Positions 2 to 33,731 of a DNA stretch of 64,000 nucleotides are shown piece after piece. The stretch covers positions 32,001 through 96,000 of IMG/VR virus record IMGVR_UViG_3300013121_000013. The stretch is one strand, 5' to 3'. Position 1 is the first letter of the stretch. Each line of letters opens with the position of its first letter. The notes below the pieces were generated by a model, which was not told the origin of the DNA, searched no databases, and saw nothing but the letters and a program-made list of their open reading frames with translations. Made by a program: the position numbers and the translations under genes. The DNA is from a virus (Duplodnaviria > Caudoviricetes).

Positions 2-2743
2 AAGAAGATACCAAATATTTTGACCGGCCATCAGTTTATGATGAAGCTTCACCATACTTCCGAGTGCTTTAGTGCTGACACTGAAGTCTTAACTTCTGAA
101 GGTTGGAAGAAGTGGCCAACTGTAACGAGCAAAGATAAACTAGCTACAGTAGAATTAGGAAGTAATAAGTTATTCTTTGAAGAGCCTCTGGAGTTAGTTA
201 AGTATCATTTCAATGGTGATCTATTACAAGTTTCCAACCAATGTATAGATTATGCCGTTACGCCGAACCATCGATTGCTGTGTAGTTTTGAGAAATCTTC
301 TGATCTAGAATTTAACACAGCTAAGAATGTTTATTCTAGAGACTTCTATATACCTCAATCTGGATTTATAAACTCTGAGAATATTGACGAAGGCGAAGTT
401 AATATAAACGGGTTAAGCTTTAAATGGGATGACCTTTCAGAGCTTATTGCCTGGTGGGCAGCTAGAGGCAGTGCTACATCTTTAAAAGGCAAAAACATAG
501 TAACCATATATCAAAATGAAAACCTTAAACCCGAAGGCTTTGCCTCAATTGATCAGCTACTGTCGAGACTAAAGCTTAACTATAAAGTTATAAATATATA
601 TGGCAGAAAACTTGGCTTTACTATAAAGGGTAAAGAGCTTTCTAAATATTTTGTAAAGCTTGGGTCTAAAATATGTAATAAAAAGCTGCCAAGAGAGTTT
701 GTTACACAAACTTCTTTAGAGACTCGTAGAAAGTTTTTAGGCATAATAGCCTTTAATAGCGTTGTGGAAAAAGAAGATGGAAGGAAGTTTTATTCTTTCT
801 CTACGAAGTCCAGACAGTTGGCAGACGATATTCAAGAAGTTGCTATCAGATCCGGCTTCTCAGCTGTCGTAAAAAATGTAGTTATGGATAAGATGTTGAC
901 CGGATTTAAAGTAGAGATCTTTACTAACAATAAGCGTGTGAAAGTAGACCAAAACAGCCATTCTTATCTACAGTATTCTGGAATGGTATACTGCGCCAAT
1001 ATGAGAAATGGCCTGCTGTACGTTAGAAGAAACGGGAAGCCAATGCTTTCTGGAAATTCTAAGTCTCAAGGTAGAGGTCTTGGCGGCTATACAGCAGAAG
1101 GAATTCCCGCAAAGGGCGGGGACGATGCTAGTAAAAGAATGGCTATGATGGATACTTACGCTTTGCTGTCTCATGGAGGTATAGATATCCTTAGAGATTC
1201 TAATTTAATCCGTGGGCAGAGAAATGATGAGTATTGGCAGGCGTTTATGACTGGTCATAGGCCGCCTGCTCCTAAAGTTCCATTTGTATATGAAAAGTTT
1301 GTTAATTCTTTAAAGGCTTCTGGTATTAATGTAGTGCGAAAAGGTTCACAGACTCAATTAATGGGATTAACTGATAAAGATATAGAACAGATGGCTGGAG
1401 ATAGATATATAACAAACGCCGAGACTGTTGACTGGAAAGAAGGATTAAAGCCCGTTAAGGGAGGTTTATTTGATCAAGCTTTAACAGGCGGGCACGACGG
1501 CACGCGATGGGCGCGAATTAAGTTACACGAACCTATGCCAAATCCTGTTTTTGAAGAGCCTATCAGGAAGATCTTGAATCTTACTCAGTCTCAATTTGAT
1601 GATGTTATTAAAGGTAAGAGAAGTATTCATGGTCACACCGGGGCGAGCGGTATAAAGAAGCTTTTAGAGAATATTAATCTGGATAGAGCAATAGAGACAG
1701 CTAGAGCTGAAATAGCTGGAGGAAAAAAGAGCGCCAGAGATATGGCTATCCGTAAACTGGGATATCTAAAAGCTGCACAAGCTACTGGTGTTCATCCAAA
1801 AGATTGGGTAGTTTCTTCAATTCCAGTTTTGCCTCCAGCTTTCAGGCCTGTGTCGGTCATGAAAGGAAGCGGAGGTCAGCTAGTAGCTGATCCTAATTAT
1901 CTCTATAAAGAAGTGTTTGACGCTAATGAAACTTTGTCACAGCTGGCGACCATGGTCGATGATGTTGGGGAAGAGCGACTAAATGTATATAAAGCGTTTA
2001 AAGCAGTGACTGGTCTAGGCGACCCAACTCAACCAAAAAATCAAGAGCGTCAAATTCGCGGTCTTCTCAGACACGTATTTGGCGATTCTCCTAAATTTGG
2101 AATGGTGCAACAAAAGTTATTAGCGTCTTCTGTAAACTTAGTCGGTAGATCAGCGATTACTCCTAATGCAGATTTGGACATGGATCAGGTAGGCCTTCCA
2201 GAACCAACTGCTTGGTCTGTGTATAAACCATTCATTATTCGTAGACTCGTTCGTAAAGGTTTAAAGCCTTTAGATGCGGCCAGATCTGTTGCTGATCAAA
2301 CAAAAGTGGCTAGGGAAGCTTTAATTCAAGAAATGGAAGATAGGCCAGTAATTGTTGACCGTGCGCCTGTACTTCATAAGTATGGTATTATGGCTTTTAA
2401 ACCCTTATTAACTAAGGGGCATACACTTCAAGTCAACCCGGTAGTAACTAAAGGCTTTGGTGCCGACTTTGACGGCGATCAAATGAATTATCACGTACCA
2501 GCTGACGACGACGCTGTTGAAGAGGCACTTCATAAGATGTTGCCATCTAAGAATCTCTTTGCCACTTCTAGCTTTAAAGCTCATTATCTGCCTAACCAGG
2601 AATATGTAGGCGGTCTTTATGCGGCATCAGTTAATAAGAATAAAAATAGGCCACGAAGGTTTGCTACCAAAGCGGACCTTTATAAAGCTATAAAATCTGG
2701 AAATGTTAATATTGACGATCCAGTCGAAGTCGTACAAACCTAA
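2..2743 (+). CDS. Phage multisubunit RNA polymerase: beta C-terminal region fused to beta' N-terminal half, with an intein; 5'-truncated by the window
   Basis: Frame is open from base 2. After intein removal FMMKLHHTSE|SKSQGRGLGGYT..KGG..SKRMAMMDTYALLSHG matches the RpoB C-terminus (YMLKLxH..DKMHARSTG..GGQRFGEMEVWAL). It continues into RpoC motifs: ETVD..KP.KGGLFD, IPVLPPAFRP, GRSAITP, DRAPVLHK and catalytic GADFDGDQM (2459-2479). Confidence 0.93.
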   Translation, partial: KKIPNILTGHQFMMKLHHTSECFSADTEVLTSEGWKKWPTVTSKDKLATVELGSNKLFFEEPLELVKYHFNGDLLQVSNQCIDYAVTPNHRLLCSFEKSSDLEFNTAKNVYSRDFYIPQSGFINSENIDEGEVNINGLSFKWDDLSELIAWWAARGSATSLKGKNIVTIYQNENLKPEGFASIDQLLSRLKLNYKVINIYGRKLGFTIKGKELSKYFVKLGSKICNKKLPREFVTQTSLETRRKFLGIIAFNSVVEKEDGRKFYSFSTKSRQLADDIQEVAIRSGFSAVVKNVVMDKMLTGFKVEIFTNNKRVKVDQNSHSYLQYSGMVYCANMRNGLLYVRRNGKPMLSGNSKSQGRGLGGYTAEGIPAKGGDDASKRMAMMDTYALLSHGGIDILRDSNLIRGQRNDEYWQAFMTGHRPPAPKVPFVYEKFVNSLKASGINVVRKGSQTQLMGLTDKDIEQMAGDRYITNAETVDWKEGLKPVKGGLFDQALTGGHDGTRWARIKLHEPMPNPVFEEPIRKILNLTQSQFDDVIKGKRSIHGHTGASGIKKLLENINLDRAIETARAEIAGGKKSARDMAIRKLGYLKAAQATGVHPKDWVVSSIPVLPPAFRPVSVMKGSGGQLVADPNYLYKEVFDANETLSQLATMVDDVGEERLNVYKAFKAVTGLGDPTQPKNQERQIRGLLRHVFGDSPKFGMVQQKLLASSVNLVGRSAITPNADLDMDQVGLPEPTAWSVYKPFIIRRLVRKGLKPLDAARSVADQTKVAREALIQEMEDRPVIVDRAPVLHKYGIMAFKPLLTKGHTLQVNPVVTKGFGADFDGDQMNYHVPADDDAVEEALHKMLPSKNLFATSSFKAHYLPNQEYVGGLYAASVNKNKNRPRRFATKADLYKAIKSGNVNIDDPVEVVQT
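65..1057 (+). mobile_element. Intein (331 aa) with a degenerate LAGLIDADG endonuclease, inside the RNAP beta region
   Basis: Block A CFSADTEVLT, block B VTPNHRL, block F/G YSGMVYC..NGLLYVRRNGKPMLSGN followed by +1 Ser. Removing it restores the RpoB motif. The LAGLIDADG-like helices are eroded (LIAWWAARGS; FLGIIAFNS). Confidence 0.92.
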
Positions 2744-2755
2744 AAAGGACTAATA

Positions 2756-3217
2756 ATGTTAAAAAGCGTTAAGAACTTTTGTGTATATATGTTTCTATCT
2801 GCTAGAATGTATTTAAAGAATAGGCAACTTCTTAAAAATATTAATTTTGAGATAGATAAAATTAATAAGAATAAGTTTAAATATTACGAAGACGTAACTA
2901 AGTCGGATTTATTATGCAGGCTAAATGAATTGCAAGTAGACTTGCATTCTTTTAAACTAAATTACGTTAAGAGATCGACTAGTGACGTTTTGGGTGGTTA
3001 TGATATTAACATAGAAGTGGGCGGTCGTAATTTATCTGATTGTGGCGTCCTGGTTCAGGGTGTGGACATCAGTATTAGTTCTAAAGATTTTATACCTAAG
3101 GTTACGCTTCATACAGTAACTTTACCTAACGATTTTGTCTCGTCTAAGGAGCCGACAAGAAATGAAAAACCTGAGCAGGTCGTTGATAAAAACAGCGTCC
3201 ATAAGGGCGAAGTCTGA
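2756..3217 (+). CDS. Hypothetical protein
   Basis: 153-aa ORF with an AAGGA RBS; no recognisable motif. Confidence 0.55.
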   Translation: MLKSVKNFCVYMFLSARMYLKNRQLLKNINFEIDKINKNKFKYYEDVTKSDLLCRLNELQVDLHSFKLNYVKRSTSDVLGGYDINIEVGGRNLSDCGVLVQGVDISISSKDFIPKVTLHTVTLPNDFVSSKEPTRNEKPEQVVDKNSVHKGEV

Positions 3218-4346
3218 TCATATAAATGGACTCATAAAGCAAGGTGCATCTTTGTATAAAAATGTACTGAGTCCTTTAAATGAAAAACTAGCCTATAGAG
3301 ATTTAAAAGATCCTCTTGGTCCTTACGAAGCGGATAGATCGGCGGCTGTTTCTGGTTTAGACAACCAGGTTGCAGTTGACGAATACATTCGTGAAAAGCA
3401 CCCAGTTCAATATTGGCTAAATCCTCTGGTAAACGGGCCAATATCTGAAATTATGCATAGACTTTCTAGACGTCATAATGCGTCAATGGGAAGAAGTATG
3501 GGTATGGAAGTTGGTAGGGGTGCAGCTGGGCTTATAGGCGGCATAAATGTTCCGTTAGCCCCTGGGTTAGGAGTACATGCCGGCACTGATATATTTGATA
3601 TAGGAGCGACCATTGCTGGCGGTGCGGGGTCTAAAACAAGGGCCAGAGATACCTTCAATACCAAGCTTAAACCAAGATTAGATATGACAAAAAAAAGAGA
3701 CGAGGAAGATGAAGCTGAAAAAACTTCATCTGATAAAGACTCAGATATCGGGGCTTATACTGCAACTCAGTTAGGGCAATTTAGAGAATCTGATGCGGCT
3801 GTAGCAGCAAATGAGTTTAACAGGAGTAATAGACCCTTCCATTATTGGTTAAACCCTTATGTACAAGGTCCACTCGGAGAGTTTAAGAATAGATATTTAA
3901 GAAGACTTGCAGCTGCAAGGGGCACATCCACTCCAGCTGCTGTAGCTTCGAGTATTCCGTTGTTGAACTTAATCGGGGCTCCTGCAGCAGCTTTATTGTC
4001 TGGAGGACTTAAAAATAAAAATAAGATGCGAAGAATGAGTTCTCCAGATATAGAAGATAGAAAGAAAAAAGAAGTAGAAAAAGATGTCGATGTTATGACC
4101 TATGGCAGTAACCAAAATTATGCCAGACAAAGAACTAAAGAATCTATGCACGTTCCTAGATACCTAGCTTTCAGCTATAGACTAGGGAAGTCAGCTGCGG
4201 AGGTAGGCATGCCGCAAGTTTCTCCTAGCGGCTCTACTTCTTCAAAGTTACCAATTTCGAAAGTAGGTAGGCCTAGAGGGTTAATGTCCATAAAAGCTCC
4301 TCTAGCTGGAGGTTCACAAGCTGGAAATAATTTTTTTTTTAACTGA
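3162..4346 (+). CDS. Putative internal head/ejected protein (K-x-A motifs, duplicated YWLNPxVxGP unit)
   Basis: ATG 3162 follows AAGGAG. Contains IKTAS, EKLAY and GKSAA, two copies of a ..P..YWLNP.V.GP.GE unit, and Gly-rich hydrophobic segments. Confidence 0.55.
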   Translation: MKNLSRSLIKTASIRAKSDHINGLIKQGASLYKNVLSPLNEKLAYRDLKDPLGPYEADRSAAVSGLDNQVAVDEYIREKHPVQYWLNPLVNGPISEIMHRLSRRHNASMGRSMGMEVGRGAAGLIGGINVPLAPGLGVHAGTDIFDIGATIAGGAGSKTRARDTFNTKLKPRLDMTKKRDEEDEAEKTSSDKDSDIGAYTATQLGQFRESDAAVAANEFNRSNRPFHYWLNPYVQGPLGEFKNRYLRRLAAARGTSTPAAVASSIPLLNLIGAPAAALLSGGLKNKNKMRRMSSPDIEDRKKKEVEKDVDVMTYGSNQNYARQRTKESMHVPRYLAFSYRLGKSAAEVGMPQVSPSGSTSSKLPISKVGRPRGLMSIKAPLAGGSQAGNNFFFN

Positions 4347-4383
4347 CAACGATCCGTCTGTCAGTGTAAAGAAGGCTGGCATC

Positions 4384-4773
4384 TTGTATAAAAAGATGGA
4401 TCCAACAGAGCCTATATTAACAAGGCTTAAAAAAAGAAACGATAAGACCGGAGAAACCGAAATAGGTAATTTTTGGGCTGGCGTAGAGCAGTATCAAAAA
4501 CCTAGATTTTTAACTAGACTATTTACTGACGACGAGAACAAGCAATACAACACGGCCACTAACCATTCATTTGCTGTGGACCTGGATGAATATAAAAATA
4601 GACCAGAGTCTTTAAAGAAAGAGGTCGATGCAAGATCTGCACTGTGGTTGGCAGCACTAGTTGAAAACTATCCTAAGCAGTATAGATTTGAAGGTGAAGA
4701 TCTATATACAGTGCCAGAAGAAGTTGCTTTAAAAGGTCCAAAAAGTAACACCAACTTAGAGTATAAAGTTTGA
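4384..4773 (+). CDS. Hypothetical protein, possibly the frameshifted C-terminus of the upstream gene
   Basis: Weak RBS. Its frame is open back through the T10 run at 4331-4340. Confidence 0.5.
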   Translation: MYKKMDPTEPILTRLKKRNDKTGETEIGNFWAGVEQYQKPRFLTRLFTDDENKQYNTATNHSFAVDLDEYKNRPESLKKEVDARSALWLAALVENYPKQYRFEGEDLYTVPEEVALKGPKSNTNLEYKV

Positions 4774-4787
4774 TAGACGTCTAGCAA
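4770..4787. promoter_or_regulatory. 18-bp palindrome, copy 1 (TTGATAGACGTCTAGCAA, 1 mismatch)
   Basis: Overlaps the TGA stop and lies just before the next RBS; matches four other copies. Confidence 0.7.
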
Positions 4788-4801
4788 AAAGGAAATGTTT
4801 T

Positions 4802-5542
4802 ATGCCAATGTATAACCCCGAGTTAATGAGACTTGCGCAGAAAAAGGCTTCTGCTCGAAAGAAGCAAGCATTTGTACCAGGCGATCCGGCTGCAGCAGCA
4901 GGTGGAGGAGGTGGAATGCCTATGGATCCTGCAATGATGGGTGGCGCTCCTCCTATGGATCCTGCAATGATGGGTGGCGCTCCTCCTATGGATCCTGCAA
5001 TGATGGGTGGCGGGGGAATGCCGCCAGCTGCACCACCACCTCCTCCTCCAGCACCTCCTGCACCTCAGCCAGCTACAGCTGAATCAGGAGGAAAACCTCC
5101 TAAGCCTGATATCAATACAGTTGCTAACGACATTTGGCAAGTTAAAAAGATGGTTGAAGGCATCTATCATAGAAATGAATGGCCATTACCTCAAGGCTTG
5201 ATAGACGGCCCTAATAGAGACCCAGCGACAGGCGCTGCTGTGCCGCCTGGAACACCTGGATCTACAAGCGACATGTCGGCACCTACTCAGAATCCTGCAG
5301 GCGGGGGCGGCGGCGCTATACCAGCCATAGAGCCGATGGAAGCCGCCAGTTTTGGAGGAGGCGGAGAAAAGAGTGGAAGCTTTAAGCGGACAGAAGTTGT
5401 AGGTGAGCCTTATGCAGATTCGTCTAGAACTGGCCGACATAGAAACAATATAACTACAATGTCTAAAGCAGCTGCCGTGGCCAGATTGGTTCAGGGTCTG
5501 GCTATGAAACGGGAGAAAGAACGTGCGTCTAGAAGCTCATAA
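4802..5542 (+). CDS. Pro/Gly/Met-rich putative internal head protein
   Basis: N-terminal KKASARKKQAF, PMDPAMMGGAP repeats and poly-Pro. Confidence 0.6.
   Translation: MPMYNPELMRLAQKKASARKKQAFVPGDPAAAAGGGGGMPMDPAMMGGAPPMDPAMMGGAPPMDPAMMGGGGMPPAAPPPPPPAPPAPQPATAESGGKPPKPDINTVANDIWQVKKMVEGIYHRNEWPLPQGLIDGPNRDPATGAAVPPGTPGSTSDMSAPTQNPAGGGGGAIPAIEPMEAASFGGGGEKSGSFKRTEVVGEPYADSSRTGRHRNNITTMSKAAAVARLVQGLAMKREKERASRSS
4919..5012 (+). repeat. 33-bp tandem repeat, ~2.8 copies (PMDPAMMGGAP)
   Basis: CCTATGGATCCTGCAATGATGGGTGGCGCTCCT starts at 4919, 4952 and 4985 (partial). Confidence 0.95.
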
Positions 5543-5786
5543 TGCTTTTGGAGATGTCATCAACTCAGAAGTGACTAGGGTTGTTGTATATGATGACTAT
5601 GACAACCCTATTTCTGTAACATTTAAATACAACGACGGCAATATCTTTACAGCTAATGTCACCGACCCTGATTTTCAAAGAATTCTTTCTTTTTTAGGTA
5701 TTAAAAAAATTGTAAAGGTATCAACTTTAAAGTCTACGAGTATAAAAGATGCTATCGACAACAGCAGGACAATTCTTAATCAATGA
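5523..5786 (+). CDS. Small hypothetical protein overlapping both neighbours
   Basis: 87-aa ORF with a GTG start after GGGAG. Confidence 0.55.
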   Translation: MRLEAHNAFGDVINSEVTRVVVYDDYDNPISVTFKYNDGNIFTANVTDPDFQRILSFLGIKKIVKVSTLKSTSIKDAIDNSRTILNQ

Positions 5787-7638
5787 ATCGCTTCCACCAG
5801 ATCTCAGAGACTACAATAGAGTTCTGGATATGAAAGGCATTAAAAAATTATTTCAAGATATAGCTGAAAAGCATCCTGATAACTATAAGGATATAACAAA
5901 GAAGTTATTTGATATAGCCAGAACTAGTGCTTACGAGACTGGAGGCTATTCTTTTGCTTTAGAGCATTTAACTAAAGCTAAGTCGGCTAAGGCAATAACT
6001 GAGAAGATAAGACAAAAAGTTAATGCTATAAATATGGACAATACGTTGTCCAAAGACGAAAAAGAAAAGAAAATTCTAGAGACTGTCTTAGGCGAAGATG
6101 AAAATTTAACTAATGCTGTCTATAAAGAAAGTCTAGAAGAAAACAATCCTATAGCATTGCAAGTTAAATCTGGTGCTAGGGGTAAGCCTATGAACTTGAG
6201 AAGTCTACGTGGAGCAGACTTAACGTATGTTGATCACAGAGATAGACCGATTCCTATACCTATTTTAAGGAGCTATAGCGAAGGTTTGTCTCCAGCTGAA
6301 TACTTCGCTGCAGCTTTCGGAGCTAGAAAGGGCATTATCGATGTTAAGTTTGCAACTCAAGATGCTGGGTATTTTTCAAAACAGCTAAATCAAGCTACAC
6401 ATAGACTAATGGTGTCTGCTACAGATTCAGAAACTGAACCCACTAACATTAGGGGACTTCCAGTAGATACAAATGATTCGGATAACGAAGGAGCACTATT
6501 GGCTTACCCTGTTGGCGGGTATCCAAGAAATACAGTACTAACTCCTAAAATATTAAATGATCTACAAAATAAGGGCATAGACAAGCTCTTAGTAAGGAGC
6601 CCTCTAGTAGGCGGACCTGAAGATGGTGGAGTGTATGCTAGAGATGTAGGGGTCAGAGAAAGAGGAACTCTCGCGCCTATCGGAGATATGGTAGGAATTA
6701 CAGCCTCGCAGGCATTAAGCGAGCCTCTAAGTCAAAGCCAACTTTCATCAAAGCACAGTGGAGGCGTTGCCGGAGCAGCTAAGGGTGTCAGCGGATTCAA
6801 GCTGATGGATCAATTAGTTCAGGTTCCAAAAACATTTCCAGGCGGTGCTACTCACGCACAGATTGACGGTAGGGTAGAACAGATAGTCGAAGCTCCTGCT
6901 GGAGGTCATTATGTAACTATATCAGGAGAGCGACATTACGTCCCTTCTGGTCTAGATCTTAAGGTTAAAAAAGGTGATCCGATAGAAGCTGGCGATGTCC
7001 TGTCTGCCGGTATTCCCAATCCTTCAGAAATTGTAAAACATAAAGGAATTGGTGAAGGTAGACGTTATTATGCAAATTTATTCAAGTCCTCTTTAACGGA
7101 ATCAGGAATACCAGCAAATAGAAGGAATGTTGAACTTCTAGCTAGGGGCTTGATAAACCATGTCAGAATCACAGAAGAAATGGGCGAATACGTACCAGGT
7201 GATGTATTGCCATATAACGTCTTAGAGAGTCGCTATCAGCCACGTGAAGGGCATAAGGTAATGGACCCAAAACAAGCTGTTGGCCACTACCTTGAAGAGC
7301 CTGTACTTCACTACAGTATAGGCACAAAGATTAGACCAACGATGATACCTGATTTACAGAGATACGGTGTAAGTAATGTCAAGGTGCATCCCGATCCAGC
7401 GTATTTTGAACCTGAAATGGTCAGAGGAATGCAGAACGTGACACAAGACCCAGATTGGATGACGAAGATGCTTGGTTCTAACCAGCAACGAAGTCTGTTA
7501 TCAAGTGTCCATAGAGGTAATAGAAGTGACGAACAAAGCACTAGCTTTGTCCCAGCTTTAGCCAAGGCCGAGGGCTTTGGTATAACAAGTAAAGTAAAAG
7601 ATTGGCATAAGACGCCAAAGGAGTTGTTCAGTGACTAG
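5749..7638 (+). CDS. RNA polymerase beta' subunit, C-terminal half (funnel, bridge helix, trigger loop, clamp)
   Basis: TTAGQFLIN (~TTxGR), NPI..QVKSGARG, bridge helix SEGLSPAEYFAAAFGARKGIIDVKFATQDAGYFSKQL, trigger loop GDMVGITASQALSEPLSQSQLSSKHSGG, and RRNVELLARGL. Confidence 0.92.
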   Translation: MLSTTAGQFLINESLPPDLRDYNRVLDMKGIKKLFQDIAEKHPDNYKDITKKLFDIARTSAYETGGYSFALEHLTKAKSAKAITEKIRQKVNAINMDNTLSKDEKEKKILETVLGEDENLTNAVYKESLEENNPIALQVKSGARGKPMNLRSLRGADLTYVDHRDRPIPIPILRSYSEGLSPAEYFAAAFGARKGIIDVKFATQDAGYFSKQLNQATHRLMVSATDSETEPTNIRGLPVDTNDSDNEGALLAYPVGGYPRNTVLTPKILNDLQNKGIDKLLVRSPLVGGPEDGGVYARDVGVRERGTLAPIGDMVGITASQALSEPLSQSQLSSKHSGGVAGAAKGVSGFKLMDQLVQVPKTFPGGATHAQIDGRVEQIVEAPAGGHYVTISGERHYVPSGLDLKVKKGDPIEAGDVLSAGIPNPSEIVKHKGIGEGRRYYANLFKSSLTESGIPANRRNVELLARGLINHVRITEEMGEYVPGDVLPYNVLESRYQPREGHKVMDPKQAVGHYLEEPVLHYSIGTKIRPTMIPDLQRYGVSNVKVHPDPAYFEPEMVRGMQNVTQDPDWMTKMLGSNQQRSLLSSVHRGNRSDEQSTSFVPALAKAEGFGITSKVKDWHKTPKELFSD

Positions 7639-8191
7639 AAATAGTAGAATGCTTAAAGCCGCGTTCTTAGGCTCTGGCGGCGGCCAGGGAGCTAGTGCTG
7701 GCGGCTTCTCTTCTGGTAATTTATTTAATAGAAGTGCTGGACAGACAGCAACTAATGTTAGACCTGCTTCAACTCCTTACGACAGAAGTACGGGAGTTAA
7801 TCTTGGGGCTAGAGCTGGAAATACTGGAACCAATACAGGCGCTAATAAACCACCAACCACTACAGCAAATGGCTCGCCAACTACAACAACGTCTGGGCAA
7901 TCTATTGGAGATATGACCTCCGGTATAGGCAATTTCTTAAAAGGAATGGTATTGCCGAGAAGTGGAAGTGGACAAGATATGGGGCAGTGGTTAGGAGGGC
8001 CTATGGGTAAGATGATAATGCCAATGTTAGGTGCCACTGGCCCTATGGCCCTTCCAGCTATTATGTGGATGCAGCAAATGATGAATGGCAATATGAAAGA
8101 TTGGAATACTATTACTGCTGGACCTGGAAAAGAAGTAAGATCTTCGTTATCTAAAGATATCAAATGCATTATGGGCATAAGAGAGAGCTAA
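7631..8191 (+). CDS. Gly/Thr/Met-rich putative virion internal protein
   Basis: Low complexity, an MLKAAF motif near the N-terminus and a hydrophobic Met-rich segment. Confidence 0.5.
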   Translation: MTRNSRMLKAAFLGSGGGQGASAGGFSSGNLFNRSAGQTATNVRPASTPYDRSTGVNLGARAGNTGTNTGANKPPTTTANGSPTTTTSGQSIGDMTSGIGNFLKGMVLPRSGSGQDMGQWLGGPMGKMIMPMLGATGPMALPAIMWMQQMMNGNMKDWNTITAGPGKEVRSSLSKDIKCIMGIRES

Positions 8192-8198
8192 ACAATTA

Positions 8199-8228
8199 TT
8201 GCAGAGATATTTAAATACTTGTTATTCT
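8199..8228 (+). promoter_or_regulatory. Candidate sigma70-type promoter (TTGCAG-18-TATTCT with extended -10 TG)
   Basis: Intergenic and upstream of the AAGGAG RBS of the 8266 gene; motif match only. Confidence 0.3.
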
Positions 8229-8265
8229 AGGTTAGTAAGCTTTAACAACGGCAAGGAGACTGAAC

Positions 8266-10647
8266 GTGCCTATTACATCAAATCAAAAAAGAGCGAACAT
8301 GGGCGGCGGACAAGATACGCCGTTTGAACAAGCATTTGCTAATCTAGCGCATACGCATTTGAAAGATAAAGCACCTTCGTTGCTAGATTACGAGGTCGGC
8401 TTTCAACTTGTGGATAGAAACGAAGACAACACAAAAGCTGTAGGTATTTTTGGATTTAAAGTTGGTAATCAGTGGCTGTATGCTCCTGTGTTCTTTTTAA
8501 ATGGTGAGCTTAAAGGCCACGAACTTCTCTACATTAAAAATCAAGATAGCTTCGTTCCTTTGAAGGAAAATTGGCTTAGTTATTTATTAAATAGGAAGCC
8601 GAGTGTCTTAGGAGAAGAGACAGATAAAAATCTATCTCACATTGGAATTATTCCTCCTCACCTATACCAGCTGTCTAGATCGCCGCATAAATTCGCTTCG
8701 GCCATACCTAGAATGTCTGATTGGGCACAGCAAGTGATGCCGGATATTGCAACATTTGCAACAGAGAATCCTCTTACTTCTGAAAAGTATAAAGACATTA
8801 GAACTGCTACTCAGTTTATAAAAGATGCTGGGGCCAATGTAGCCATTACCTTTATCAGAGCTATACAGGAGAATCCGCAGCTTGAGAAAGTGTGCTATGA
8901 TGTGTATGGCAAGGACGAGGTAATTGCTGCTGTAAAGGAAGCTAGAGATTCTTTAAAGAAATCAGCTTCAGTTTTAAATGTTAAAAAAGCTGCTGTTCAA
9001 CCTAGGACTATTAGACAAGTCTTAAATGTTGACCCTCTTTATAAGATGGCTCAAGTACAGAAAAAGATACGAATATTAAAACTGTCGGAAGATAAAAAAG
9101 CTCCTGATGGTCTAGACCAGGGCTTGTCTGGGCTAGACGACAAAGAAAAAGAACAGATTGTGAGATCTGGAGTCGTCATAAAAGATACTAGAGGGCCAGA
9201 AGAAACTACTCTTGCGTATAGAACAGAAGGCCCTGAAAAACTTACGAATCCGTTTGCGAGTGGTATATACGATGTTCTAACTTCTCCAGGGAAGTTCGAA
9301 CGTTGCTATATAGTATTTGGCCCATATAGTTCTAGAAGAAGAAATAGTTTCTGCACGTTGTTCAGACTTGAGGGTTCCAAGTCTGTACTTAATACACATC
9401 CGTCTAACATATGGGTATCCAATAAAGTTGAAGATAAAGAGTTCGATTCTTGGTGGGACAGCTTAGAAGATGTTAAGAGTTTGTCCAAATCTTCGGCTGA
9501 ATATGTTCTTATAACTAAAACTGGAGAAGGTACAGTACCTTTTCGAGTTGAATCTGAGGTAGCAGATGAAAATGGCTACAAGACATATAATGTATGCTTT
9601 GATGACTATGCTAGAAAGTGTAGAGCAGGATATCTGCCCAAAATAGGCCCTGACTCTGATAGAAGATTTGGATTTGAAGGCTCTGGATACGACGATGAAT
9701 ATAGTTCTGACTATCCTAGAATAACTTTAACCGAAAGGCATGGTGGAAGAATTCGTCTAATGAAGGGCGAGCTATTTGTTCCAAATGGAACTAAGATTGT
9801 TAAAGTAACTGATGAAGAGTCGGATAAATCTGAAAAGGATGAGCCTTTAACATTGTCTAGCCTTATTGATATCCAAATGAAGATAATCAATAAGTCGCCT
9901 AAGCTAATGATACAGAAGATGGGAAGTGGCTTTATTCTTAACGGAAAGCCTCAAAAAGATAAGATAGATTCAATCATATATCTTATTAGACAGCACGGGT
10001 TAGGAGAAAAGCAAGCTTCGCTTCTTCTTGATGAAGCTTATGAAAATGGAAAAGCTTCTTATGTCTTAAAATATGCTGCGCCATGGGATTTGTTAAATCA
10101 AGGACCAACAGCTCCAAGCGACCCAGGTCCGTTTATGGGATATGATCCTATGACCAGCGGAGGAGTTCCAACTCAATTCTCGTCTGAGTATATGCAAAAT
10201 ATACCAGAAATGTCTGCTGCAAACACGGATAGGTCTATCTACGCACCAATGGGACCTGAACCTAAATATCAAGGTCCATCTAAGCCAGATCAATCAACGC
10301 TTCAAGCGGCTATGCAAGCTAGCCAGACAGGGCAAAAGGAAGTCTTTGATACAGCTATGCTTGGCTCGCTTTTAAAAGCTACTAAAGATGAAAATCTTGT
10401 AGATAGGTATTTAGGCGATCTGATGAAGGGCATAGACCGTCTTGGACGAATACTCTTCATGTTCTACTGGCACCAGGAAGAGTTTGAGGGCAGATATGGA
10501 AAAGACGATCTTGTTGAATTAGAAGACGGGCTAAGAAATGCGTTTGAGTCACTTGGAGATATTACCTTGTTCTTGAAGCAGAAGACTATAGATCCAGGCC
10601 AAGACAACGCTTACGGACCAGATATAGAAGATATTTCTTCAATATAA
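8266..10647 (+). CDS. Large putative internal head protein with many K-x-A motifs
   Basis: 793 aa; QKRAN, HKFAS, KKSAS, VKKAA, YKMAQ, EKQAS, LKYAA; lies upstream of the head module. Confidence 0.55.
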   Translation: MPITSNQKRANMGGGQDTPFEQAFANLAHTHLKDKAPSLLDYEVGFQLVDRNEDNTKAVGIFGFKVGNQWLYAPVFFLNGELKGHELLYIKNQDSFVPLKENWLSYLLNRKPSVLGEETDKNLSHIGIIPPHLYQLSRSPHKFASAIPRMSDWAQQVMPDIATFATENPLTSEKYKDIRTATQFIKDAGANVAITFIRAIQENPQLEKVCYDVYGKDEVIAAVKEARDSLKKSASVLNVKKAAVQPRTIRQVLNVDPLYKMAQVQKKIRILKLSEDKKAPDGLDQGLSGLDDKEKEQIVRSGVVIKDTRGPEETTLAYRTEGPEKLTNPFASGIYDVLTSPGKFERCYIVFGPYSSRRRNSFCTLFRLEGSKSVLNTHPSNIWVSNKVEDKEFDSWWDSLEDVKSLSKSSAEYVLITKTGEGTVPFRVESEVADENGYKTYNVCFDDYARKCRAGYLPKIGPDSDRRFGFEGSGYDDEYSSDYPRITLTERHGGRIRLMKGELFVPNGTKIVKVTDEESDKSEKDEPLTLSSLIDIQMKIINKSPKLMIQKMGSGFILNGKPQKDKIDSIIYLIRQHGLGEKQASLLLDEAYENGKASYVLKYAAPWDLLNQGPTAPSDPGPFMGYDPMTSGGVPTQFSSEYMQNIPEMSAANTDRSIYAPMGPEPKYQGPSKPDQSTLQAAMQASQTGQKEVFDTAMLGSLLKATKDENLVDRYLGDLMKGIDRLGRILFMFYWHQEEFEGRYGKDDLVELEDGLRNAFESLGDITLFLKQKTIDPGQDNAYGPDIEDISSI

Positions 10648-19335: not shown

Positions 19336-20265
19336 ATGCCACAGACTCGTGATGAAACCAGACTGCTAAACGACACATTGTTTGAGCAGTTAAGCACTCC
19401 TGGCATGGAGAAGACCGCGATTGATGCCGTCAACGACTTCACCCGCATCAGAATGCGTGAAGACGGATTCTATCGCAGAATTCTCCCGCCATTGCAAATT
19501 ACTAATGACGAGCTAGATCGTCAAGTAGACACAGATAAGCCAGTGAAGGTTGTAGACAAGGAGCCAGACAGCCCGGCTGCTGTAAGTATTCCTTTCGCCA
19601 CACTGCCGACCAACTTCTACATTCGCGGACCTCGCTATCGAGTAATGTTTGACAGACTAGTAACTCCAAGATTTACTAAGGACGTAGACGAGCTTCGCAC
19701 CTGGGTAATGGACATCAGACAGGTAATGTCTGACAATGCGATTAAGGACATGTTGGCTGAAGAAGACAACAAGTTCATTGCCGCTGTAAACGCTTCTCTC
19801 ATCTCTCAAGGCGCTGTAGCCCCTACTTCTGGCGAAGTCCAGTGGACACAGATCTTTGGAGGTATTACTCGAGATACATTCCAGGACAGCTTGAAGGTTA
19901 TGCCTTCTACGCCGTTCCACTTAGAGGCGCACACTGGCCTTATCAATAACGTAACCATTAGAGAGTTCCTCAAGTGGGGCCGTGACGAAGTCGGCGGCGA
20001 TATGTCGCAGGACCTTCTAAGAAATGGCTGGTCCGAAACCGAATTTGCAAACGTTCGTTGGATCATCACTATCAAGAGAGATCTTGTACCTGATGACACA
20101 ATCTTCTACTTTGCAGATCCTAAGTTCATCGGCAAGAGCTATATGCTTGAAGATACAACTATGTATATCAAGAGAGAAGCATACTTACTAGAGTTCTTTG
20201 CTTATGAAACTCTTGGCGGATCTATCGGCCATACTGGCGGTCTTGTCAGAGTAGACTTCGCGTAA
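19336..20265 (+). CDS. Major capsid protein (HK97 fold)
   Basis: 309 aa; strong GGAGG RBS and C-ending codon bias. The RRILPP..V.DKEP..IPF..P.F.KDV.EL..ED.KF pattern resembles HK97/encapsulin-like capsids. Canonical synteny; MEKTA after a short leader. Confidence 0.8.
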   Translation: MPQTRDETRLLNDTLFEQLSTPGMEKTAIDAVNDFTRIRMREDGFYRRILPPLQITNDELDRQVDTDKPVKVVDKEPDSPAAVSIPFATLPTNFYIRGPRYRVMFDRLVTPRFTKDVDELRTWVMDIRQVMSDNAIKDMLAEEDNKFIAAVNASLISQGAVAPTSGEVQWTQIFGGITRDTFQDSLKVMPSTPFHLEAHTGLINNVTIREFLKWGRDEVGGDMSQDLLRNGWSETEFANVRWIITIKRDLVPDDTIFYFADPKFIGKSYMLEDTTMYIKREAYLLEFFAYETLGGSIGHTGGLVRVDFA

Positions 20266-20295: not shown

Positions 20296-20808
20296 ATGAG
20301 CAGATACTCAGAGCTAAGGTTAAGAAATCTTTGCTGCTCTTGTAGACAGCCAGCACAGACACCAAGATGTGCTGGCTGTTGTAAGAAGCGCCGTGAAAAT
20401 GATCAACGTACTAGACAATTACGAAGACAAGATAAAAGATGTATAGATTGTGATTCTAAAGAGCTGTTTGACAATACAGCATATTGCAAACGACACGCTA
20501 TAGCCAGACGACTAAGAGATAAAAAATTTAGACAACGTCTAAAGACTAGGGTTTTTAATGCCTATGGCGGCTTTAAATGTAGCTGCTGTGGAGAAACGGG
20601 AGAGTCCTTCTTAGCTATAGACCATATTAATAATGACGGCGCAGAGCATCGTAAAAAGCTGTCACAAGGTACTGGCAGTAGGTTTTATCAGTGGTTAAGT
20701 AGTAACAACTTTCCAGACGGCTTCCAAGTTCTGTGCTTTAATTGCAATCACTCCAAGTCAATTAATCGTGGAGTGTGTGAACACCAAATAAAAAGAGGTG
20801 ATAAATGA
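20296..20808 (+). CDS. HNH endonuclease with a Cys-rich N-terminus
   Basis: CSCCGE..LAIDHINNDG..FQVLCFNCN. Confidence 0.85.
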   Translation: MSRYSELRLRNLCCSCRQPAQTPRCAGCCKKRRENDQRTRQLRRQDKRCIDCDSKELFDNTAYCKRHAIARRLRDKKFRQRLKTRVFNAYGGFKCSCCGETGESFLAIDHINNDGAEHRKKLSQGTGSRFYQWLSSNNFPDGFQVLCFNCNHSKSINRGVCEHQIKRGDK

Positions 20809-25787: not shown

Positions 25788-28589
25788 ATGCCACAAGTTT
25801 TAACAGCTGGGTCAGTAATTGACAGCGGACGTAGAATCAAGACCTCATTCGGCGCCCCTCTTCGTCCACTTATTTTTGGATCGAAAGCTGGGTTACATAG
25901 ATATTCGGTCGCAGGAGAAAAGACAGAGATCTCTCTTGGTGATTACGACGTAAACCAAAATACTGTTTATAGCTATCCGGATAAGGCTTCTGGCTCTATT
26001 GTAGATCTGGACTATGTGAAGCTTTACATGGACGATGCGTATTTACAGTACTTAGCTAAATATATAGGTGTAGGTAGCGGGACTGTTGCTCCAGTAGCTA
26101 ATTACAATAATAGAGTTAGGGCATCAGATTTAGTATTTAAAGAATACACAAATGCTGCAGGTACGACTTTTTCTAGATCTTCTGACTTCTATGACAGAGA
26201 CGTAGCTGTAGGAGACATAGTAAGAGTTAGAGGAACAGTAGGAAGCCAATCTACTACGTTCACTACCAGCGTTAATGGATTTATAAACGAATCAATCCCA
26301 TCTGTTATAGGCGCAGCCTCCGCAGACTCTGACAATGCCGCAAGCCAAAGCTCTAGTACTTCTATCAGTCAAGTAGCTGATACTCCAGTCAATGAAGTTG
26401 TAGCTACCGCCGATGGTAGCGCTTATGATGGCCTTGCTGACGGGGATATTAGTGAAACCTACACTATCACTGTCATACAATCATCAACCAATAGTGATGC
26501 CACTACAGCAAGACTTCAAGTTACCAGCGCCAGCGGTAATGATGATCAGGCTTCTGTAACTCCAGCCGCTTTTGGGGATCCTACAGATATCGGAACTAGA
26601 GGCCTAACTGTCACATTTGCACTAAGCGGTCCAGGAACGTCTGAATCTATAGATCAAAACGATCTTGTGGTGGGGCAATCTTGGACGGTAACTGTAGAGC
26701 AAAGCTTCACTCCTCCGACAGCTACCTCTGGAGGAACAGCAGCGACAGGTCTACCCACAACAACCTATATAATCACTGTTACAAGAGGCGGGTCGTTCGT
26801 AGATCCAACTCCTCCTCAAATCACGGTCTCTACAACAACTGGCGTTGATGTGAGCGGACCAACTAACGCTACTGTATCAACAGCTTTGGCGGTAGGTACA
26901 TATGGAGTCACTGTCACTTTTACAGGGTCTGCACTGCGTAAGGGGGATATTTATCACATCTCCACAACTCGTACACAGCTTGGTGCTTATAAAACAATTA
27001 TCTTGAAGGATAGTCTTCCCTCAGGCTTAGTTGGAGCTACAGATCTTGATATTTGGTTATTCATTGAGAAAAATGGATTACTCATTACTGAAAATAGGCT
27101 GCCCAGTCCTCCAGATAAGAACTGGGTTGCAGCAGCGTCAACTTTTACAGTGAATTCAGATATAGAAGTTTACGAGGATAGTTGGACAGACGACGGCACG
27201 CCTCTAAGTCTGCCTGTCGTTGAAGGCACTATGTATCTTGAATACAGAGAGTGGCTGACGTCTGGTGGAAATACTATATACAACATATATGACGTTTCTG
27301 AAGTAGAAGCTACGTTCGGAACGGTTGATCCAGATAATCCAATTGCCTATGCCGTGGACAAGGCTCTTAGAAATACTGGATATAACAACCTTACCGGAGT
27401 ATCCGTAGATGATATAGACATCGTTAGGGCAGTATGGCTAGCTGATGACCCATCAGAAACTCAAAGCTGGCAGGATGTTCTAGATCTAGTTGAAGGTGTA
27501 GAGAGCATTTATAATCTCATACCTCTCACTACAGATACCGATGTTCTAAATATCGTAGCGTCTCACGTTTCGACTGAATCGGCGGCAGAAGTGGCCAGCT
27601 TTAGAGCCGCAATATTCCAGCTTACAGCGCCCAGCGTACAGACTATAAGATCTACAAACGACGACTCGTCGGTTATCTTGGCTACACTCGTCCAAAATCC
27701 TGAAGTTACATCTACCTCTTATAGTCAGTTTGTGGTTGAGGGACAAACACCGAAATTTATTACAAGCGGTGTAGTGGCGGGTGACGTTGTGAGATATCTA
27801 TATACCACAGACGGGTTCGGAAGCGAAACATACACGGAGTTCACAATCGCTTCTGTAGTCTCTGAAGATACACTTCTAGTAGAGACGGGGCATACATCTG
27901 CAGTGAACGTGGCGCAAAAGATAGTAATCGTAAGATATCCTAGTAAGGCAGAAATTATCACTGATCTTATAACTCAGGCAGAGTCTTATGGTTCTGATAG
28001 AGTTCTTGCTATTTGGCCTGATACTATTAACGACGCTGGACAAGAAGTCGCAGGATATTATCTTGCAGCAGCTCTCGGAGGATTAATGGGCTCTGTTGCC
28101 CCACATCAGCCTTTGACAAATGTTGAAGTCCTTGGTTTCGATGCTGTTTCTAGATCTAAAGATTTCTTCACCAATAAGCAACTTCAGCAACTCGCAGATG
28201 GTGGCGTATTTGTTGTTACAGAGGCACCAGATGGTACTGTCTATATTCGAAAAGCTTGGACAACCGATCCTTCGTCTATAGGCTCTAGAGAGGAAATGGC
28301 TAGACGCAATAGTGATGCAGCCAGATTTGCAATACTTAGTAAGTGGCACGACTACATCGGTAATGCAAACAATGTCCCATCAACTTATGCTGCGATGAAT
28401 GGTGACTTTACCGGCGTTATCGGAGAAATGAGAAGTGACACCTTCTTACCTAGATTAGGGTCTATGGTACTGGCGGGCAGTCTTGACGAATTGCGATCTC
28501 ATGCTGTACTTGCTGATAGGGCAGTTGCAAACATAACTTTACAGGTGCCTTATCCTCTTAATGTTATAGAGCTAAACGTTGTTATATAA
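25788..28589 (+). CDS. Contractile tail sheath protein with inserted Thr-rich domains
   Basis: C-terminal core YYLAAALGG..PHQPLTN..GF..QLQQLADGGV..RE..RNSD..VPYPLN.I; 933 aa. Confidence 0.85.
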   Translation: MPQVLTAGSVIDSGRRIKTSFGAPLRPLIFGSKAGLHRYSVAGEKTEISLGDYDVNQNTVYSYPDKASGSIVDLDYVKLYMDDAYLQYLAKYIGVGSGTVAPVANYNNRVRASDLVFKEYTNAAGTTFSRSSDFYDRDVAVGDIVRVRGTVGSQSTTFTTSVNGFINESIPSVIGAASADSDNAASQSSSTSISQVADTPVNEVVATADGSAYDGLADGDISETYTITVIQSSTNSDATTARLQVTSASGNDDQASVTPAAFGDPTDIGTRGLTVTFALSGPGTSESIDQNDLVVGQSWTVTVEQSFTPPTATSGGTAATGLPTTTYIITVTRGGSFVDPTPPQITVSTTTGVDVSGPTNATVSTALAVGTYGVTVTFTGSALRKGDIYHISTTRTQLGAYKTIILKDSLPSGLVGATDLDIWLFIEKNGLLITENRLPSPPDKNWVAAASTFTVNSDIEVYEDSWTDDGTPLSLPVVEGTMYLEYREWLTSGGNTIYNIYDVSEVEATFGTVDPDNPIAYAVDKALRNTGYNNLTGVSVDDIDIVRAVWLADDPSETQSWQDVLDLVEGVESIYNLIPLTTDTDVLNIVASHVSTESAAEVASFRAAIFQLTAPSVQTIRSTNDDSSVILATLVQNPEVTSTSYSQFVVEGQTPKFITSGVVAGDVVRYLYTTDGFGSETYTEFTIASVVSEDTLLVETGHTSAVNVAQKIVIVRYPSKAEIITDLITQAESYGSDRVLAIWPDTINDAGQEVAGYYLAAALGGLMGSVAPHQPLTNVEVLGFDAVSRSKDFFTNKQLQQLADGGVFVVTEAPDGTVYIRKAWTTDPSSIGSREEMARRNSDAARFAILSKWHDYIGNANNVPSTYAAMNGDFTGVIGEMRSDTFLPRLGSMVLAGSLDELRSHAVLADRAVANITLQVPYPLNVIELNVVI

Positions 28590-28607
28590 AATTTGACAAA
28601 TAACTAA

Positions 28608-28631
28608 TCGGCGGATAGAGATATCCGCCGA
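28608..28631 (+). other. GNRA-capped hairpin between sheath and tube genes
   Basis: TCGGCGGATA-GAGA-TATCCGCCGA, a perfect 10-bp stem with no U-tract. Confidence 0.7.
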
Positions 28632-28658
28632 CTATTGAAATGACATGGAGGTCCTAAT

Positions 28659-29309
28659 ATGGCCGATATTTTTAACCGACGGTCTATGCAAATAGGTAAT
28701 TCCTTTGCAGCAGATTCGGCGGTAATCAACTTTAGTGGTGGAGGTCTTGCTCCAGGTGCTGGATCTGGATTGTTGGTACAGAATATGGGCTTCCAGTATC
28801 AGCAGCCAGTTACTCGTATCTACGAGCTTGGAACTCAGTTAACATATTATATTGCCGGCAGGCCTCAAGGTAACGGTAATATCGGAAGAATACTAGGTCC
28901 GGGCCCTGTTGTATTATCATTTTATACTGCATATGGCGACGTATGTAAGGCTGCCAGAAACAATATCAACATTTGGGCGTCTGCTCTATGCAACCCGTCC
29001 TTGGGGCAATCACTAGGACCAACGGCAAACGCTTTGTTAGGCTTAGTTGGACTTGGAGGCGCTAGAATAGCCCCAGGCATTAAATGGTGCCTTACTGGTG
29101 TAGTTCTTAATAGCGTAGGTATGACTATAGCCGCGCAAGATATGATAATGAATGAGACCCTAGGATTTATGTTCGTTGCCTTGGAAGTATGTCAGGCTTC
29201 ACAGTTTGCGCTACCTTGGTCAGCCGGAGCCTGCTGCCCAGTTTCTGCACCAGCAGCAACACAAGCAGGTGCTGCTCCACTACCTTTACTTAGAACAGTT
29301 AGCGGCTAA
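28659..29309 (+). CDS. Tail tube protein
   Basis: Follows the sheath gene; LVQN...QYQQPVTRIYELG...YY..GR.QG pattern typical of myophage tube proteins. Confidence 0.75.
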   Translation: MADIFNRRSMQIGNSFAADSAVINFSGGGLAPGAGSGLLVQNMGFQYQQPVTRIYELGTQLTYYIAGRPQGNGNIGRILGPGPVVLSFYTAYGDVCKAARNNINIWASALCNPSLGQSLGPTANALLGLVGLGGARIAPGIKWCLTGVVLNSVGMTIAAQDMIMNETLGFMFVALEVCQASQFALPWSAGACCPVSAPAATQAGAAPLPLLRTVSG

Positions 29310-29360
29310 TTTTCCATAGACAATTCTAGTGATTTAGAGAAGCCCAGAAATAAGGAATGA

Positions 29361-32027: not shown

Positions 32028-32038
32028 AGGAAGTTAAG

Positions 32039-33328
32039 ATGCCGATTCCGATTGGAAGATCTAAAAAACAGCCACAAATTCAACCGAACACAAAAGATAT
32101 ACAGCACCTTTCGCCGCAGCAATTATCCGAGTTAAGGCCAACTTCATCACTACCAGTTGGCTCTATAGTAGGTAAAGGTTCTCTGACTGATACTGAAAAA
32201 AAAGTATTAGAACAGATGGGTTGGCAGCCTGGCCAGCCAATTCCTTCAGAAATAAGTAAACAGCTTTCGAATATGGAAGTTGTAAAAGATTTGAGAGAGT
32301 TACAGAGGAAGCTGAAAGTCGAAGCAGAGAATGCTGTACCCGTTCCTCTAAACACTCCTCCTTTAAAAGTACCGAAGCCGACTCTTCTAGAAGATCTGCC
32401 TCCAGACAAGCAGGCAAGTATCTTGCAGAGTATTAAAAGCGCCATTAAAGATACTGAACTATTAGTAAAGGCAGCAAATGAAGAAGCGGCTGGCAGCAAG
32501 AGATCTGTACAATTTGAAGATCCGAGTCTAGAGGCAGCGGCTAGATATGTCTTAGAGAATTCTAATTCTTCTGACATCGTTATAGATTCAAAACCTTTGA
32601 CAACTGATAATGTCGTCCCTGCTTCTGATGTACAACATCCAGCCGCTTATTTGACCAAAGAAGAGCTTGATAAGCTTATAAATAAGACGGAAGTACAAGC
32701 TCAGTCTAACTCTGTAAAGGAAGAGGCTAAACAGCTTCCTAAAGATTCGGACACAGGGCTATTAAAGAAGCATCAAGAATGTCCGCACTGCGGCTGGGAT
32801 CAAGACAAGCCAGAACCAGCAGAAATGCCATCAAGTACAGATAAATCTGCTTTCCTACAATCCGTGCTTGGACAGATAAGATTTAAGAAATCTTATAGCC
32901 TTCTAGGCGATAAGGTTGTTGTTGTTTTTAGAACTCTAAAAGCAGAAGAGGCTGACTTGTGCATGACTCAAACAGTCATAGATATGGCTAAAACTGCCCA
33001 GGCTGATAACGAAGTTGCATTTTGGCGTACTGTTGCCGACTATAGATTGGCTATATCTATTGATTCTGTATACATAGATGGCAGGGGCAAGATTTACACA
33101 GCGCCTGAGGATATATGGACAGGTTTCGAAATAGCTGAAGAAGAAAAGCCTAAAGATTCGACAATACTTCCATTGATAGTTCAGTATATCTATAGCAATA
33201 TCTTAGTTCTAGAGTCATTAAGAAGAGCTATAGGAGTTAACTGCTTTAACTTCCATAGGATGGTTGAATTTATGGAGGCTCGTGTGCTGGACACAAATTT
33301 TTGGAAAGCGACCGAGGATGCGCATTAA
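32039..33328 (+). CDS. Tail assembly chaperone (gpG-like) with an N-terminal extension
   Basis: Upstream of the tape measure; VVFRTLKAEE motif; ends at an in-frame A_AAT_TTT slippery site. Confidence 0.65.
   Translation: MPIPIGRSKKQPQIQPNTKDIQHLSPQQLSELRPTSSLPVGSIVGKGSLTDTEKKVLEQMGWQPGQPIPSEISKQLSNMEVVKDLRELQRKLKVEAENAVPVPLNTPPLKVPKPTLLEDLPPDKQASILQSIKSAIKDTELLVKAANEEAAGSKRSVQFEDPSLEAAARYVLENSNSSDIVIDSKPLTTDNVVPASDVQHPAAYLTKEELDKLINKTEVQAQSNSVKEEAKQLPKDSDTGLLKKHQECPHCGWDQDKPEPAEMPSSTDKSAFLQSVLGQIRFKKSYSLLGDKVVVVFRTLKAEEADLCMTQTVIDMAKTAQADNEVAFWRTVADYRLAISIDSVYIDGRGKIYTAPEDIWTGFEIAEEEKPKDSTILPLIVQYIYSNILVLESLRRAIGVNCFNFHRMVEFMEARVLDTNFWKATEDAH
33295..33301 (+). other. Programmed -1 ribosomal frameshift heptamer A AAT TTT
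   Basis: X XXY YYZ pattern in the frame of 32039..33328; the -1 frame continues into ORF 33301..33717. Confidence 0.78.
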
Positions 33329-33717
33329 TTTGTCAAGCGGCTGCTGAGGGCCTTATTGATTTTAGTAAGGCCCAACTCCTCGATCGCTATTGGTGGAAAC
33401 GTCTTGACATACTTCTCTATCAACTAGAGAAACGTAACTATTATGACGTTATTAAAACACAGCATAACCAATGCTCTAACGCGTTGACTTATTGTGACGA
33501 TGACGAAATTTTCAAATCATATTGGAAATCTTGCAATGACCTTTTGAACGATTTGTATAGTTCTTATTTCTCTTGGGTTAAAGAAAAAGAATTATCCAAG
33601 AATAATGACGTCATTAAGCAGTTGAGAGAAGAGTACATTGCTAACTTTGGCGATCCGGACACTCCTGAGGCCAAGCAACGAATTGCAAATACTGTTAACT
33701 TCTTAATGAATAGATAG
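33301..33717 (+). CDS. Tail assembly chaperone gpT-like frameshift extension
   Basis: Overlaps the upstream gene in the -1 frame; only a TTG start and no clear RBS; directly precedes the tape measure. Confidence 0.65.
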   Translation: MESDRGCALICQAAAEGLIDFSKAQLLDRYWWKRLDILLYQLEKRNYYDVIKTQHNQCSNALTYCDDDEIFKSYWKSCNDLLNDLYSSYFSWVKEKELSKNNDVIKQLREEYIANFGDPDTPEAKQRIANTVNFLMNR

Positions 33718-33731
33718 TAATTGGAGCTGTA

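Follow-up and report, generated by a model that had tools for sequence, protein, structure and literature searches.

The window analyzed here is a 64,000-bp stretch of viral DNA, corresponding to bases 32001-96000 of the 155,646-bp IMG/VR contig IMGVR_UViG_3300013121_000013, the completeness of which is estimated at 76%. The plus strand carries nearly all of the genes, among them those for a multisubunit RNA polymerase (RNAP), which sit within the structural module. We describe the loss from this enzyme, as predicted in its mature form, of both zinc sites of the beta' subunit and of every cysteine (Cys) residue. The RNAP consists of two chains, a beta::beta'N fusion encoded by a frame of 2515 amino acids (aa) and a separate beta'C of 629 aa. 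The whole fusion frame is located at contig 27196-34743; the window begins within beta and holds the 3' part of the gene at 1-2743 on the plus strand (positions are those of the window unless stated otherwise).

The N-terminal half of beta' (1349-2740, plus strand) extends from about residue 20 of E. coli beta' to about 75 aa beyond the catalytic motif, where the frame ends. The Mg-binding catalytic motif itself, GADFDGDQMN (2459-2488, plus strand), is of the NADFDGD type of the double-psi beta-barrel. Pfam RNA_pol_Rpb1_2 was detected in beta'N (8.7e-25; 88.3 bits against a cut-off of 25.3), and beta' and gamma chains in PDB matched with E of about 1e-48, the best match being a gamma chain. 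The beta'C gene (5749-7638, plus strand) encodes a protein devoid of Cys, which matched Pfam RNA_pol_Rpb1_5 in the bridge helix and trigger loop region (7e-22; 78.5 bits against a cut-off of 28.5) and beta' in PDB (E 2e-39). With its AlphaFold2 model (pLDDT 86.7) as query, Foldseek gave TMq of 0.70-0.75 against beta' of Thermus and E. coli; as modeled, the C half folds like bacterial beta'. With about 1040 aa of beta, about 1085 aa of beta' and the DFDGD motif intact, the enzyme is a complete bacterial-type catalytic core. The initial annotation had called it a minimised RNAP; it is indeed compact, but the core is still complete.

The first difference from bacterial beta' is observed at 1460-1525 on the plus strand (residues 2089-2110 of the 2515-aa frame), where beta'N reads GGLFDQALTGGHDGTRWARIKL, with the pattern GGLFD..LTGGH.G.RW..I.L. 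Both flanks of the N-terminal zinc-binding domain (ZBD) are retained, GLF upstream and R(M/W)..I.L downstream, and an 11-residue Gly-rich loop stands in place of the domain. By alignment with E. coli beta' and with gp55 of phage phiKZ, about 30 residues bearing C70, C72, C85 and C88 were found to be absent, and no Cys is present there. The replacement of the ZBD was thus confirmed at the position and with the motifs first assigned to it. The loop motif was detected in 117 of the 120 best beta::beta'N homologues, 116 of these 117 having no Cys within 40 aa. The ZBD has been described as common to all multisubunit RNAPs (Lane & Darst, as cited in PMC7618050).

The second zinc site (ZnII) would be expected in beta'C at 6415-6651 on the plus strand. 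By both HMMER and MAFFT, the residues opposite E. coli C814, C888, C895 and C898 were found to be S227 (6427-6429), G289 (6613-6615), Y296 (6634-6636) and D299 (6643-6645), in agreement with the earlier observation that Cys is lacking at this site. Among 150 beta'C representatives, the first position is variable (D, A, G, E, R or S), and the others are occupied by Gly (130), Tyr (136) and Asp (150); in none of the 150 was Cys found at any of the four. The AlphaFold2 model, which takes no account of metals, is confident over most of the former site: pLDDT is 92-97 at residues 231-300, and 83 in the block 221-230, to which S227 belongs. As judged from sequence, both canonical four-Cys (Cys4) zinc sites of beta' are absent. 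No alternative cluster of Cys or His aligns at either place, and the enzyme is predicted to be zinc-free at the canonical sites, as had been proposed.

The loss of zinc ligands is one part of a total absence of Cys, which the initial annotation had missed. All 21 Cys of the 2515-aa frame are located within three inserts, the bounds of which were set by comparison with the intein-free homologue P0002. Since these inserts are absent from P0002, start with Cys, end with Asn and are followed by Ser, Thr and Ser, respectively, never by Cys, they were identified as inteins and are predicted to be spliced out. Inteins 1 and 2 (frame residues 813-1170 and 1212-1544; 358 and 333 aa) are encoded on the plus strand upstream of the window, and intein 3 (frame residues 1624-1954; 331 aa; Ser at +1) at 65-1057 on the same strand; together they span contig 29632-33057 (window -2368 to 1057). 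The insertion points are within conserved beta motifs, GDK(M)|SNRFGGKGV, LNPLGVVSR|TNPAQ and KLHHTSE|SKSQGRG, and Pfam PF14528 is recorded in precomputed form for the beta::beta'N protein. After splicing, the enzyme (1493 plus 629 aa) would contain no Cys in 2122 residues. At the mean Cys content of the phage proteome (1.38%), this length should hold about 29 (P about 1e-13), and the absence is therefore not due to chance. Even at 0.6%, a value assumed for Cys-poor virion genes, P is about 3e-6. Avoidance of Cys by the whole proteome was considered and rejected, given this mean and the content of 1-4% in non-structural genes.

The same design is widespread. A search with the beta'N region gave 3878 proteins. 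With beta'C as query, 4658 representative clusters were obtained; 1126 passed E<1e-30, and bacterial beta' may account for some of these. No Cys was found in 80 of 86 intein-free beta::beta'N homologues, and beta'C homologues contain 76 Cys in 92,316 aligned residues. The number of inteins per beta::beta'N homologue ranges from zero to many (homologue lengths 1436-3572 aa). The homologues come mostly from environmental metagenomes, on contigs reaching about 220 kb; the clade is a large group of uncultured phages of about 150-220 kb. The decay of the gene set into a non-functional RNAP, to which the loss of universally conserved elements, the split gene and the three inteins might point, is hardly credible, as the frames are unbroken, catalytic motifs and fold are kept, identity of 50-60% is maintained across hundreds of distinct clusters, and the replacement residues are themselves under selection, which argues for a stable design.

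Some further features of the beta'C homologues were observed. Most are 950-1800 aa in length, matching residues 1-617 of the query and then continuing into a long extra C-terminal region. In the window, beta'C stops after 629 aa, and separate open reading frames (ORFs) come next, at 7631-8191 (Gly/Thr/Asn-rich) and 8266-10647; the counterpart of the latter is also a separate gene in two relatives, L009 and L010. For many beta'C homologues, the alignment with the query falls into two or three segments, interrupted near residues 195-210 and 333; the interruptions may be inteins.

The closest known system is the RNAP of Salmonella phage Arash, composed of Gp206 (beta::beta'N) and Gp216 (beta'C) with the sigma factor Gp10, and of the kindred Vibrio phages D69, D148 and D181. 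The two types share the two-chain layout, the split point of beta' and the ZBD-less loop (GGLFD..TGG..G..W), which was found in both Arash and D181; in both, the RNAP genes belong to the structural module, beside head genes, and the enzyme is nearly free of Cys. Unlike the enzyme studied here, the Arash type, which is 27-32% identical, keeps the four ZnII Cys, has AADYDGD as the catalytic motif and carries no inteins. The ZnII pattern of Arash and D181 is DC.T...TC...G(V/I)C..CYG, and this tetrad is kept by 117 of 120 Arash-like beta'C proteins, 113 of which have exactly those four Cys.

More distant phage enzymes were compared at the same two sites. The non-virion RNAP of phiKZ (gp55, gp74) possesses both the ZBD (CxC-x12-CxxC) and ZnII. 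The virion RNAP of phiKZ (gp180, gp80, gp178, gp149), which is packaged and ejected, likewise lacks the ZBD in gp180; it differs in having a ZnII-like tetrad in gp80, 16 Cys (0.61%), more chains and no sigma70 homologue. The non-virion RNAP of the Bacillus jumbo phage AR9 is reported to lack the beta' ZBD (PMC7618050). Its structure has been solved (PMC9209446). It has no alpha or omega, neither of which was detected for the present enzyme either, but it belongs to a very distant lineage, consists of four to five chains, uses a non-sigma specificity subunit and is not a virion enzyme. As zinc is not mentioned in the structure paper, the state of its ZnII was read from the sequence: the site is present, and its beta'C contains exactly four Cys. 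In the AR9 virion enzyme, for which beta'N only was compared, the ZBD is absent. The loss of ZBD is thus shared with Arash and D181, the virion RNAPs of phiKZ and AR9 and, as reported, the AR9 non-virion enzyme, a relationship overlooked in the initial annotation. On account of this sharing, ZBD loss is recurrent among phage RNAPs and ancestral to the two-chain family. All the other phage enzymes compared at ZnII (both RNAPs of phiKZ, the AR9 non-virion RNAP and the Arash type) keep that site, and in these alignments it is the loss of ZnII, not that of ZBD, that sets the studied clade apart. In the literature searched, no paper was found to describe loss of the ZBD or ZnII for the two-chain family, nor did the papers examined on phiKZ and AR9 state the absence of the ZBD from virion beta'N or the four-Cys beta'C of the AR9 non-virion enzyme.

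With bacterial beta' (E. coli RpoC), the enzyme shares sequence homology, fold and a sigma70-type factor, and its split lies roughly where the cyanobacterial gamma and beta' subunits are divided. Unlike bacterial RNAP, it has no ZBD, ZnII or Cys; beta is fused to beta'N, lineage-specific insertions are absent, and alpha and omega were not found. For these two subunits no match was detected in the contig, whereas all control genomes gave matches; since the contig is only 76% complete, alpha, omega or a factor acting in trans may have escaped detection. The sigma70-family factor (40189-40998, plus strand; 269 aa, no Cys) matched Pfam Sigma70_r3 above cut-off (31.4 bits) and phrog_351, with a weak match in region 2. 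It is probably the promoter-specificity subunit and a predicted partner of the core. The initial annotation had suggested that promoter recognition and termination may differ; the presence of the sigma factor argues for a broadly bacterial style of initiation.

The RNAP genes share their order with Arash. By tblastn, the RNAP genes, a gp218-like gene, a gp222-like gene and the gene for the major capsid protein (gp226) were found in both; the capsid protein homologue (19336-20265, plus strand) is 30% identical to Arash gp226 (E 5e-35). This structural module, which with its virion context had been missed before, is Cys-poor, and other modules contain 1-4% Cys. Among its products are two very large Cys-free proteins, encoded at 25788-28589 (933 aa, with a weak tail-sheath match) and 33732-36371 (879 aa); the genes adjoining them code for proteins with up to 9 Cys or more.

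Purified Arash virions contain Gp206 and Gp216 at levels that place both with their most abundant proteins, and they also contain the sigma factor (PMC10585845). This proteomic evidence, the Arash-like gene order, the Cys-poor structural module and the contrast within phiKZ, in which the virion gp180 lacks the ZBD and the non-virion gp55 has it (the virion beta'N of AR9 lacking it as well), suggest that the enzyme studied here is also carried in the virion. By this analogy, carriage and ejection are probably the reason for the loss of Cys and zinc. As an overall reading, we therefore favor, with somewhat better than even confidence, a working, sigma-dependent two-chain RNAP of bacterial type that contains neither Cys nor Cys4 zinc sites once spliced, and that probably reached this state through carriage in the virion.

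The sequence of events may be envisaged as follows. The three inteins would splice out of beta, leaving a mature enzyme free of Cys and of both Cys4 sites. The former ZnII knot would presumably be held by the Gly/Tyr/Asp set through packing and hydrogen bonds. The RNAP and the Cys-free sigma would be packed in the capsid and wait in the oxidizing extracellular environment, where thiols and zinc-thiolate clusters would be liabilities; ejected together with the DNA, the enzyme would then start transcription of early genes. ZnII is said, in work by Markov et al. from 1999, to be needed for assembly. The tether between beta and beta' probably replaces the assembly roles of alpha2 and ZnII, a proposal for which that work and work by Severinov et al. 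from 1997 reportedly provide the basis.

Several points weigh against this reading. Presence in virions is known for Arash only, at 27-32% identity, and its extension to the studied clade is by analogy. The virion RNAP of phiKZ retains its 16 Cys and ZnII-like tetrad, so that virion carriage alone does not demand the losses, and the AR9 enzyme without ZBD is a non-virion one (PMC7618050). Several proteins of the structural module, both here and in Arash, contain Cys. Finally, alpha, omega or a trans-acting factor could sit on the missing part of the contig.

Some of these points also favor the view that the losses are real but were driven by something other than virion carriage, namely zinc scarcity in oligotrophic waters, oxidative or thiol-reactive conditions or defences in the host, or a fold that tolerates inteins. 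The ZBD-less non-virion enzyme of AR9, the analogical nature of virion carriage in the clade and the origin of most homologues from environmental metagenomes can all be cited for it. This view is unlikely on balance. Outside the structural module, this phage has many genes for Cys-rich proteins that probably bind zinc, which makes zinc economy an improbable cause; the Cys that are not zinc ligands were purged too; the depletion of Cys tracks the structural module; and of the two phiKZ enzymes, the virion one is without the ZBD and the non-virion one has it.

A different objection is that a site built from His, Asp or Glu might bind zinc or another metal at the former ZnII. D299, at the C898 position, is invariant (150/150), and D226, beside the C814 position, is nearly so; H218 and R219 are both invariant and specific to the clade, Arash having Y and H there. 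In principle, D299, H218 and D226 could form a non-Cys metal site. However, a residue that might act as a ligand is present at just one of the four former ligand positions, the C814 position being variable and the C888 position Gly. H218 is nine residues upstream, where a long helix of the model (H182-217) ends, and is probably distant from the site. At the other site, the one His in the loop replacing the ZBD is not universal, Pro being found at that position in Arash. We consider such a metal site improbable.

The ORFs between beta::beta'N and beta'C bear on whether a separate small protein might supply the ZBD in trans. The beta' subunit is already split, and two small conserved ORFs lie between its halves. 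One of them (5523-5786, plus strand; 87 aa, Cys-free) overlaps the start of beta'C and is conserved in L009 and L010 (E 1e-12 and 7e-7), each of which has an ORF of about 80 aa at the same position; its product may be an accessory protein or subunit of the RNAP. The other (4802-5542, plus strand; 246 aa, Cys-free) is of low complexity, rich in Gly, Pro, Met and Ala, with tandem PPMDPAMMGG repeats and a poly-Pro/Ala tract; it is conserved in L009 (37% identity over 153 aa, E 8e-10) and gave no Pfam or PHROG match. No Cys is encoded by any ORF between the halves except 2756-3217, a doubtful and non-conserved frame with three scattered Cys and no CxxC. Regular-expression scans of all six frames, together with inspection of the ORFs between the halves, gave no candidate for a ZBD in trans, and phmmer searches of the six frames with the ZBD segments of E. 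coli and phiKZ gave only noise (best E 0.3). A ZBD supplied by a neighboring ORF, which had been named as a possible refutation of the initial annotation, is thus very improbable.

The sole CxC..CxxC motif in an open frame longer than 100 aa was found at 20296-20808, among head and neck genes. This ORF (170 aa, 15 Cys) gave no Pfam or PHROG match and was rejected as a zinc module of the RNAP, as it carries the HNH-nuclease motifs AIDHINNDGAEHR and CFNCNHSK (DH..N, CFNCN); its product is likely to be a free-standing homing endonuclease.

Hardly any match to Pfam or PHROGs was obtained for the ORFs at 2756-5786 and 7631-10647 and for the genes upstream. Neither L009 nor L010 has a counterpart of the Cys-free ORFs at 3135-4346, which looks to be of low complexity, and 4384-4773. 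The three Cys-free ORFs of 3135-5542 might code for internal or ejected virion proteins. Fragmentation of the ORFs at 2743-5749 by an alternative genetic code was considered and rejected, because the relatives are split likewise, with separate genes in between.

Both zinc sites of beta' are regarded as near-universal, and the present clade represents a widespread enzyme with neither site and without any Cys. Both sites would be dispensable given suitable compensation, for which the beta-beta' tether and the Gly/Tyr/Asp replacement are candidates. The non-virion RNAP of phiKZ (both sites), the Arash type (ZnII only) and the studied clade (neither) form a natural series for analysis of the roles of the zinc sites, and the last is a candidate for an RNAP insensitive to redox conditions and chelators. 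We see about an even chance that this is a natural RNAP free of structural zinc and Cys that arose stepwise, by loss of the ZBD, then of non-ligand Cys and then of ZnII, with storage in and ejection from the virion as the driver. If this is true, the enzyme would be an oxidation-proof RNAP, and shedding of thiols is suggested as a general rule for ejected phage enzymes; if the virion explanation holds, depletion of Cys could help in the prediction of packaged and ejected phage proteins.

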